Source: a virus. Taken from it: a stretch of DNA of 64,000 nucleotides. Position numbers and translations under genes: made by a program. This document shows positions 24,370-44,716 of the stretch, in pieces; within the stretch, counting starts at the first letter, position 1; every line of letters begins with the position of its first letter. The stretch is from IMG/VR virus record IMGVR_UViG_3300030331_006276. One strand, given 5' to 3'. The notes under the pieces are model-generated. The model did no database searches. It was not told the DNA's origin and saw only the letters and a list, made by a program, of their open reading frames with translations.

Positions 24370-24375
24370 GCCATA

Positions 24376-24403
24376 ATTATATAACCTATAGAGAGGATAT
24401 CAA
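24376..24403 (-). promoter_or_regulatory. Sigma70-type early promoter of gp32
   Basis: TTGATA-N16-TATAAT, 6 nt before ATG. Confidence 0.7.
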
Positions 24404-24410
24404 CAGTTTT

Positions 24411-24710
24411 TTATAACTGTATATTTGAATTTGAATTAAGGAACTTAGTAATATATTTTGACTTTGTTATTGCTGGTTCAAAGTCAATAAAGAGCTTTAC
24501 TATATCAAAATTTGTCTCTATTGTTAATAGTTCCTTTAGTATATTTCTCAATCTTTCTTCTTGTAATACAAGTATAAAAATATTTTGCAGAGATAATTTT
24601 TTACCTTTTAGCATTGAACAAAACGTACAAAAGCAAAGTAGTAGATGCTCTGTTTCATCTTTAATTAAAGTTTTAGAGGGATTTGGTGATATATTTGAAG
24701 TTGTTAGCAC
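24411..24710 (-). CDS. Hypothetical protein
   Basis: 99 aa, GTG start overlapping the DHH stop. Confidence 0.5.
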   Translation of the reverse strand: MLTTSNISPNPSKTLIKDETEHLLLCFCTFCSMLKGKKLSLQNIFILVLQEERLRNILKELLTIETNFDIVKLFIDFEPAITKSKYITKFLNSNSNIQL

Positions 24711-31976: not shown

Positions 31977-32004
31977 ATTATATTTTCTTATATATACTTT
32001 TCAA
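31977..32004 (-). promoter_or_regulatory. Early promoter of uvsX
   Basis: TTGAAA-N16-TATAAT, 7 nt before ATG 31969. Confidence 0.7.
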
Positions 32005-32295
32005 CTGTTTAATTTGTTCCAAAAGATCTAATACATTAGTAACTTTTATTGTATCAGTTTGTATTGTCATGGGATAGTTTAACTGTGTATCAATACGTAT
32101 ACCTTCAACATCACATTCTGGAGTTACCATATCATCAACAAAGTCATATAAACCTTGACTCTTAAGATTTTTATAATGGTAATCAATTAACGGTTTAGTT
32201 GTTTCAACTACAACATTAGCATCAGCCATCATTGTTAAATACCTAAAGTATAGCCCTTCATTTGTTGTTAAATCTGCTATAACTATTAAGTTCAC
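31978..32295 (-). CDS. Hypothetical protein (105 aa)
   Basis: Start reassigned to GTG 32295, 5 nt after minus-strand TAAATA (32301-32306). The track's upstream extension to 32385 runs through a terminator. Confidence 0.6.
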   Translation of the reverse strand: MNLIVIADLTTNEGLYFRYLTMMADANVVVETTKPLIDYHYKNLKSQGLYDFVDDMVTPECDVEGIRIDTQLNYPMTIQTDTIKVTNVLDLLEQIKQLKSIYKKI

Positions 32296-32311
32296 ATAAT
32301 TATTTATGCAT

Positions 32312-32335
32312 AAAAAAAGCCCCTTACGGGGCTTT
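32312..32335 (-). terminator. Intrinsic terminator
   Basis: Minus strand AAAGCCCC-GTAA-GGGGCTTT followed by more T (T7 run); GNRA loop. Confidence 0.9.
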
Positions 32336-32340
32336 AAAAG

Positions 32341-32530
32341 GTGGGTGAGAGGATTTTCTGGTAACCTCCAACTTTCAGTGAGCAAGATGCAGTTTCATCT
32401 TTTTACCTACTTGTGCCCTGCTTTTTTACACTTAATAGTCAGTTGACCCTCCATGTACGTTACAGTCCCTTTAACACTCTTGCTTAAAATGTTTATTCAG
32501 GCACACCCGGGGTTGGGCTAGCTAGGCCCA
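32341..32530 (-). ncRNA. Putative structured non-coding RNA, family not recognised
   Basis: About 190 nt, visibly GC-richer than the flanks, between the hsp20 stop and the terminator; several complementary segment pairs (see findings). Strand inferred from the terminator. Confidence 0.55.
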
Positions 32531-32539
32531 TATAAATTA

Positions 32540-32950: not shown

Positions 32951-32988
32951 AGTAAAAATATTTATTACACATTATGTATTTTTTTAAA

Positions 32989-44324: not shown

Positions 44325-44716
44325 ATTTAGGTCATTGGGAGGGGATTCTAGAAGAAAGTACGGATCTACCTTACGGTTTCATTTATAAGATAACAAATCT
44401 TACTAATGATAAAAAGTATATTGGTAAAAAGCAGTGCCAGTCAATAAGAAAACGTCCACCCTTAAAGGGTAAAAAGAATAAACGTCATGAAAAAATAGAA
44501 ACTGACTGGAAGACCTATACTTCTTCATCAAATGAACTTAACCAACATATAGAAACACTTGGAAAGAATAATTTTAAGTTTGAAATCCTTAGGTGGTGTG
44601 ATTCAAAGTGGGAGTTGAGTTATCATGAAACTAGATTACAATTTGAAAAAGAAGTATTACTAAGAGATGACTACTACAACGGAATTATTAACGTCAGAAT
44701 TGGAAGGCGTAAATGA
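44318..44716 (+). CDS. GIY-YIG nuclease-domain protein
   Basis: GFIYKITN..KKYIGKK..W..Y..SS..F..EIL..E..YYN. Confidence 0.8.
   Translation: MVDLGHWEGILEESTDLPYGFIYKITNLTNDKKYIGKKQCQSIRKRPPLKGKKNKRHEKIETDWKTYTSSSNELNQHIETLGKNNFKFEILRWCDSKWELSYHETRLQFEKEVLLRDDYYNGIINVRIGRRK

Follow-up and report, generated by a model that had tools for sequence, protein, structure and literature searches.

A divergent RNA, very probably of the manA family, between hsp20 and a terminator in an uncultured lineage of marine T4-like phages

The manA motif (Rfam RF01745) was called a cis-regulatory riboswitch candidate in marine phages by Weinberg et al. in 2010 (PMC2864571), because an open reading frame (ORF) usually starts 11–50 nt downstream of it. 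Most of the canonical loci compared here are arranged in this way, while about a quarter have a terminator first, and the adjoining genes are gp32-like, transaldolase, HAD, PurS-like, hsp20, and small ORFs. To our knowledge, no function has been assigned to manA since 2010. Aligned with a canonical member, the Rfam consensus begins with a 5' hairpin, the loop of which is GACG, and continues with a closing helix and the junction GUGaCUGAAUAA with a 2-bp pair round a hairpin; these are followed by a three-hairpin domain (GUGGUG, GNRA, and uaACCA), a 7-bp stem with a UaCUguA hairpin, and a 3' hairpin. The wcaG (RF01761), glnA, and PhotoRC RNAs are also structured RNAs of marine T4-like phages, with roles that are metabolic or unassigned.

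The family is newly of structural interest through a cryo-EM preprint on RNA-only cages, in which manA RNAs are reported to self-assemble in vitro into 8-mers, 10-mers, and 60-mers, the 60-mer being a cage (Ren et al. 2026, 10.64898/2026.07.01.735769). Pentamers are the building blocks of the assemblies, with L5-L7' and L8-L9' kissing loops and a GNRA-receptor contact holding them together, and the members have a core in common, with peripheral helices that differ and set the type of oligomer (10.64898/2026.07.01.735769).

The window analysed here, the whole 64 kb stretch of DNA, comes from a phage of an uncultured, deep-branching lineage of marine T4-like phages. Among isolates, cyanophages and a Pelagibacter phage come nearest, yet its UvsX is only about 33% and its DNA polymerase only about 31% identical to theirs; at these identities the phage is not a cyanophage relative, unlike the phages that carry canonical manA. 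There is no blastn match to the RNA, or to the 2.6 kb around it, among 50,697 phage records, and the lineage is without a sequenced isolate.

On the minus strand the order is hsp20, an 8-nt spacer following the hsp20 stop codon, the RNA, an intrinsic terminator, an 84-aa ORF, uvsX, and queC (Table 1). The gap between hsp20 and the 84-aa ORF (32233–32539, 307 nt) is non-coding. A sequence-only reading of the window had described this as its largest intergenic stretch; on a crude ORF map it is indeed among the three largest real gaps, but not clearly the largest. It had also been described as richer in GC than its flanks and closed by a clean terminator, and both descriptions hold, the GC being 0.38–0.385 in 200-nt windows against 0.27–0.36 in the flanks, and an intrinsic terminator being present at 32335..32316, followed by a U-tract. 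The GC of the RNA itself is 0.44. No tRNA or tmRNA was found when these were searched for. Elsewhere in the window there are two other gaps of about 340 nt, 44325–44666 and 24370–24703, neither with an ATG-started ORF of at least 70 aa, and neither matches an Rfam family at E up to 0.1.

Table 1. Features of the locus in the window, in minus-strand order
Feature	Position	Strand	Basis or remark
ATAAATA, T4-type late-promoter-like motif	32959..32965	-	8 nt upstream of hsp20 ATG
hsp20, small heat-shock protein, 136 aa	32540..32950	-	Pfam HSP20 PF00011, E 1.1e-13
Very probable divergent manA-family RNA, 194 nt	32338..32531	-	Rfam RF01745, model positions 1-192 of 192
5' hairpin (Rfam P1) UGGGC/GCCCA	32530-26/32518-14	-	Rfam manA helix; invariant in 23 relatives
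Closing helix GGGUG/CACCC	32508-04/32347-43	-	Rfam manA helix; invariant in 23 relatives
Closing-helix 5' strand and conserved junction GUGCCUGAAUAA	32493..32508	-	Junction matches Rfam consensus GUGaCUGAAUAA
2-bp pair C32501-G32468 and C32500-G32469	32468..32501	-	Rfam alignment
Hairpin ACAUUU/GAGUGU inside the 2-bp pair	32492-87/32479-74	-	Rfam alignment
Rebuilt middle domain: CUGU/GCAG closing one extended hairpin	32418..32465	-	Constrained fold
Hairpin AAGAUG-AAACUG-CAUCUU (loop L8)	32384..32401	-	Rfam alignment; homologous to canonical ACUG-loop hairpin
3' hairpin GGAGG/CCUCU, 12-nt loop UUACCAGAAAAU (loop L9)	32348..32369	-	Family alignment
Intrinsic, bidirectional-looking terminator AAAGCCCC-GUAA-GGGGCUUU and U-tract	32312..32335	-	Present in all relatives
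ATAAATAAT, possible late promoter of the next gene	32299..32307	-	After the terminator
84-aa ORF (MMADANV...), no known family	31978..32232	-	79-96% protein identity in 20 contigs

The same reading had left the RNA unassigned and had proposed a cmscan comparison with Rfam, manA included, as a check; it is this comparison that supplies the identity. At the Rfam gathering thresholds nothing is reported for the stretch, because the manA score of 40.7 bits is below the RF01745 gathering score of 55.2 bits. In E-value mode, the match to 32531..32338 on the minus strand covers the full length of the model, with E values of 3.4e-9 in the local search and 4.9e-7 over the whole window (64 kb against 4227 families). 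It is the sole Rfam match in the whole window at E up to 0.1, a level at which wcaG (RF01761), glnA, and PhotoRC have no match anywhere in the window. The copies in related contigs score 43–46 bits, one per contig, the RNA being single-copy in this lineage; a canonical manA member scores 185.6 bits.

The sub-threshold score counts against the identity, as does the lack of a match to the model in its middle domain and long stem. The folding energy of the whole RNA is no better than that of shuffled sequences (z = -0.97). In favour of the identity, the manA-like fold, if forced in a constrained fold, is only 1.1 kcal/mol above the minimum free energy (MFE) structure. The U.G pairs of the ACAUUU/GAGUGU hairpin set the strand of the RNA as minus. 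The element is very probably a divergent, remodelled member of the manA family (RF01745) rather than a new kind of RNA, and the earlier description of a structured, conserved non-coding RNA on the minus strand with a terminator at its end stands. The family is a known one; what is new is the variant, which is remodelled, has not been catalogued, and belongs to a new lineage of phages. As a discovery this is modest. The Rfam threshold misses a whole lineage-specific variant of manA.

The pattern GGGNGTGNCTGAATAA is found in more than 120 viral contigs, mostly in canonical manA RNAs, the contigs of which are placed by blastn in T4-like phages of Prochlorococcus and Synechococcus. The 84-aa ORF and a narrower pattern lead to about 45 contigs of the window's own lineage. 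Pairing within this clade was counted over 23 relatives, while the family alignment contains 106 sequences, 91 of canonical manA and 15 of the clade.

Across 44 relatives the RNA core has a mean identity of 92.4%, compared to approximately 84% at the DNA level for hsp20, the 84-aa ORF, and uvsX. The non-coding RNA is thus more conserved than its coding neighbours, which argues for strong selection upon it. Two related contigs, L134 and L135 (the latter of 154 kb), have hsp20 and the 84-aa ORF and do not have the RNA; its presence or absence is a natural polymorphism among the relatives, and the clade offers a natural comparison of relatives with and without it. This RNA-less lineage, the sub-threshold score, and the unremarkable folding z-score would all be expected of a non-functional spacer or a decaying remnant. 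Such a reading is nevertheless barely credible, given that the RNA is more conserved than the neighbouring coding genes in 44 contigs and that the family core is retained via compensatory changes.

The nested manA fold covaries strongly across the 106 sequences, where 33 pairs have double changes, a count that is reached in 0 of 500 shuffles. Three helices, namely the closing one, the 2-bp pair, and that of the 3' hairpin, remain 100% paired across the clade and the 91 canonical sequences via compensatory changes. Within the clade itself (23 relatives) there are no compensatory changes at all. Because the RNA is nearly invariant there, within-clade covariation is uninformative, both for the manA-like fold and for the helices of the sequence-only reading, and the clade-specific parts of the fold are supported only by folding energy and by changes on one side of a pair.

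The first two helices of the manA model are the 5' hairpin and the GGGTG/CACCC pairing that had already been noticed from the letters of the window. The loop of the 5' hairpin is of 7 nt, (C/U)UAGCUA, being CUAGCUA in the window, and it holds the 6-nt palindrome UAGCUA, which is invariant in 23 of 23 relatives; canonical manA has a GACG loop on this hairpin, where the clade has the palindromic one. The closing helix follows the family pattern GGGNG/CNCCC with a separation of around 160–175 nt, the distance between its strands being about 165 nt in the window RNA as in canonical manA. It is paired in 106/106 family sequences, with an A-U to U-A change in 18 of these.

The GUGNCUGAAUAA junction is common to the window RNA and the manA family, and it is accompanied, as in the family, by the 2-bp pair and the 6-bp hairpin. 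The 2-bp pair is formed in every sequence, by A-U in the 91 canonical ones and by C-G in the 15 from the clade. The hairpin is shifted, sitting 4–5 nt further 5' in the clade than in canonical manA.

The middle domain departs from the canonical arrangement. In place of the three small hairpins with GUGGUG, GNRA, and ACCA loops, the window has a single extended hairpin, made of UACAU/GUGUA and then GGUC-AACU-GACU with an AACU loop; of the canonical domain, only the closing 3–4 bp and UGG are kept. The Rfam alignment passes over the rebuilt domain. The changes in P3 and in the outer stem of the extended hairpin are only one-sided ones that keep the pairing, with the exception of three unpaired cells at one pair of P3 among the 23 relatives, and the inner GGUC/GACU stem does not vary within the clade.

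Further 3', canonical manA has a 7-bp stem round a 4-bp hairpin with the loop UaCUguA. The corresponding AAGAUG/CAUCUU stem is a perfect 6 bp, and the count within the clade, which covered its five inner pairs, shows no variation in them, whereas the long outer stem is degenerate, with 4 non-standard pairs in the Rfam alignment in comparison to the canonical 7 bp. An alternative outer pairing round the ACUG hairpin is 88.8% paired in the 23 relatives and is without compensation. The 3' hairpin is paired in 106/106 family sequences, with double changes at 4 of its 5 pairs; between canonical manA and the clade it goes from GUUGG/CCAAC to GGAGG/CCUCU, where U-A, U-A has become G-C, A-U. An 11–12-nt loop on this hairpin and the CCCACC tail, in which the ACC follows the 3' strand of the closing helix (aCc in the family), are common to the window RNA and canonical manA. 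So too is the placement, which is intergenic and co-directional in marine T4-like phages, near hsp20/ibpA, within the family's range of marine T4-like phages or marine bacteria. The clade shows which parts of manA are indispensable, namely the closing helix and junction together with the ACUG and 3' hairpins, and also which parts can be exchanged.

The sequence-only reading had instead proposed three mutually crossing helices, B, C, and D, and from these a new pseudoknotted RNA, a ribozyme, or a conformational switch. The stretches are complementary, and helix B appears in the unconstrained MFE structure. Complementarity of this kind is, however, at chance frequency. The RNA contains 19 complementary runs of at least 6 bp and 6 of at least 7 bp, compared to 25.6±5.1 and 9.1±3.1, respectively, in dinucleotide shuffles, and no pair of B, C, or D has a compensatory change among the 23 relatives. 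Each of the three also clashes with helices supported by the family. Helix B, which has C.A mismatches in 4 relatives, competes with the 2-bp pair that covaries in the family. The first pair of helix C is broken in 20 of the 23 relatives, and another three of its pairs draw on bases in the 3' arm of the AAGAUG/CAUCUU hairpin. Helix D competes with the 3' hairpin, and in one natural variant (L166) a G-to-A change breaks D and converts a G.U of the 3' hairpin to A-U, favouring the hairpin over D.

With a full-length Rfam manA match in addition to the lack of covariation and the conflict with helices that covary across the manA family, a new RNA built upon B, C, and D is very improbable, and this proposal is already largely refuted. 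There is no sign of a ribozyme, and a conformational switch is unsupported. The word pseudoknotted is right insofar as the manA family has loop-loop pairings that cross the nested fold, and unsupported as regards the B-C-D topology. The D1 pairing of that reading, taken as a contact from the tetraloop to the junction (AACU/AGUU), was also considered, and was dropped as sterically unlikely.

One of these loop-loop pairings, L8-L9 (CUGUA/UACAG), covaries in the family, where 3 of its 5 pairs have double changes, a count reached in 0 of 500 shuffles; its variants include AUGUA with UACAU and CUUUA with UGAAG. In the window's clade it is reduced to 3 bp (CUG/CAG), which are invariant, against the canonical 5 bp. 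For a second candidate, GGCA/UGCC, none of the 91 canonical rows is unpaired, and C-G has switched to A-U once. Helix C has as its outer 4 bp AGCA (32484-81) with UGCU (32384-81), which are within 1 nt of this canonical site, and so a portion of helix C coincides with a candidate tertiary pair of manA, which the remainder of helix C does not. The MAFFT family alignment misaligns the ACUG loop of the clade, placing a later ACUGAAA there, with the consequence that the clade rows are gaps or mismatches in the GGCA/UGCC and L8-L9 counts; the loops were therefore compared by hand.

If the Rfam helices are numbered in order, then L5 would be the GUGGUG loop, L7 ACCA, L8 ACUG, and L9 the 3' loop, a mapping which fits the complementarities that are seen. 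The window RNA, known from sequence alone, is of the same family as the self-assembling manA RNAs of the preprint and has the conserved core. The hairpins mapped to the L5-L7' and L6-P6' contacts of those RNAs are absent from it, and it is further set apart from them by its palindromic UAGCUA loop, a candidate contact peculiar to the clade. This loop may be a site of self-pairing. Symmetric dimerization of RNA classically makes use of a small hairpin loop with a 6-nt palindrome, as in the kissing loop of the HIV-1 DIS; for the window RNA, dimerization is only a prediction. ROOL and GOLLD are large phage-associated RNAs that are homo-oligomeric, and so provide other RNA-only multimers in phage contexts, although the window RNA is far smaller than these and has no sequence relation to them. 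By analogy with canonical manA, the RNA probably works by way of the shape into which it folds and of contacts between RNAs, while self-assembly of this particular variant is a tentative possibility, and a doubtful one.

The gene directly 5' of the RNA is hsp20 in 44 of the 44 related contigs that carry it. In every relative, hsp20 is preceded by (T/A)ATAAATA(A/T/C), 7 nt that are mostly TTTTACT, and the ATG. Further upstream the DNA is unrelated between contigs, with a different gene, a terminator, or, in L166, a tRNA-like sequence. The motif matches the T4 late-promoter consensus, TATAAATA, and the ATAAATA before hsp20 is the likely start of a unit that contains the RNA. A σ70 promoter, TTGACG-17-CATAAT, had been considered before hsp20 and was dropped, the conserved element there being ATAAATA. 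Between the hsp20 stop codon and the RNA there is no promoter motif that is conserved in the relatives; there are AT-rich strings resembling a -10 element just before the RNA (TATAAT in the window), which could be a separate promoter.

The RNA would appear to be co-transcribed with hsp20, in a single late transcript that runs from the late promoter-like ATAAATA through hsp20, the short spacer, and the RNA to the terminator. It would then form the 3' tail of an hsp20 transcript made late in infection, and the product would be the folded RNA itself, whether it stays on the hsp20 mRNA as a 3' domain or is released as a separate piece. The terminator is outside the RNA, separated from it by a variable U/A spacer with indels among the relatives, and its stem is itself altered in some of them, being GCCUCC/GGAGGC in L166 and longer in L172 and L183. 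The RNA-less contig L135 (2856–3000) has another terminator (GCCUCGGUAAUUAAUUACCGAGGC) immediately after hsp20.

What follows the terminator also varies. In seven relatives (L085, L166, L172, L178, L183, L189, and L195) the 84-aa ORF, which has no match in Pfam, is absent and uvsX with its own TATAAT is next, while in L093 the next gene is neither of these. Each of the genes found after the terminator in relatives has its own promoter-like motif. Where the 84-aa ORF is present in relatives, an ATAAATA after the terminator is kept, in L135 as a perfect TATAAATA. The ATAAATAAT of the window may accordingly be a late promoter of the next gene, although the motif is at chance level in the window, with 8 occurrences against 7.05. 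Because the order of hsp20, RNA, and terminator is conserved, because the RNA-less relative keeps a terminator, and because the downstream genes vary, we lean, on balance, towards the RNA being the tail of the hsp20 unit and not a switch for the next gene. Taken jointly, the manA identity and this hsp20 unit are somewhat favoured.

Counting against the tail arrangement is that most canonical loci have an ORF 11–50 nt downstream and no terminator, as fits a 5' leader. The RNA might then be an orphan riboswitch, in which a manA-like aptamer senses a small molecule and controls read-through of the terminator at 32335–32312 into the 84-aa ORF, uvsX, and queC. This would agree with the proposal of manA as a riboswitch candidate in 5' UTRs (PMC2864571); the succession of aptamer, terminator, and gene is a classical layout, and in other members of the family terminators also come directly after manA. 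However, the terminator does not overlap the RNA, the spacer has indels, and there is no conserved alternative pairing to be seen, nor was a conserved anti-terminator found between the RNA and the terminator when looked for in the relatives. L135 has a terminator after hsp20 without having the RNA, and the gene downstream varies and carries a promoter-like motif of its own beyond the terminator. In addition, the genes adjacent to manA are functionally unrelated, which would be unusual for a metabolite sensor, and no ligand is reported since 2010 in the literature that was searched. A riboswitch at this locus is thus quite unlikely.

The association with hsp20 extends to canonical manA. At 20 canonical cyanophage loci, where both orders occur, manA has a same-strand hsp20 no more than about 1.4 kb away, and at 4 of these manA starts 91–125 nt after hsp20. 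Same-strand adjacency of the two in cyanophage contigs is far more frequent than would be expected by chance. Neighbouring pairs are seen, among others, in L005, L026, L062, and L068, in L038, L048, L063, L077, and L081, and in phage P-SSM2 (L221), where the order is manA, a purS-like gene, and hsp20. In phage P-RSM4 (L222) manA is directly after the major capsid gene, gp23. A position at the 3' end of a late hsp20 unit, along with linkage to hsp20 in both orders, argues against a simple leader riboswitch.

The same linkage is also compatible with a cis-acting element in the 3' UTR of the hsp20 mRNA, which would protect it from exonucleases or tune its translation or decay. The RNA is always directly after hsp20 and before the terminator, the linkage recurs in cyanophages, and in P-RSM4 the gene before manA, gp23, is highly expressed. 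Yet the hairpin of a terminator is normally enough to protect a 3' end, and L135 manages without the RNA. Conservation extends over nearly all of the 194 nt, far beyond what a stabilizer would need, and other members of the family are found ahead of genes or adjoining tRNAs. Such a 3' UTR role is unlikely.

A broader proposal can be made for the family, which is improbable as it stands. RNAs of the manA family may be late-expressed, self-associating structural RNAs that travel with phage hsp20, and not riboswitches. The clade would be a re-engineered version, in which the canonical kissing hairpins have been lost, the UAGCUA loop has been gained for symmetric pairing, and the RNA is produced at the tail end of a late transcript from hsp20. 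Were this so, an RNA and a chaperone would be produced together and might work together.

Two further observations concern the surroundings of canonical manA. In L106 (1090–1165, minus strand), as with many canonical manA RNAs of cyanophages, manA is followed, some 15–20 nt on, by a conserved terminator-like element of about 45 nt, AGACCUAAGAUGCAACUC...GAGUGGGCAGAUGGUCU with a U-tract, which is also present in L016, L056, L063, L068, L070, L088, L097, L112, and L118. The interior of its stem is conserved, which is not needed by an ordinary terminator, and the element has no Rfam match at E up to 0.01. In L102 (1700–1810, minus strand) there is a tRNA-shaped sequence directly after a canonical manA, and entries in the alignment of Weinberg et al. 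include manA RNAs that are flanked by tRNAs (PMC2864571).
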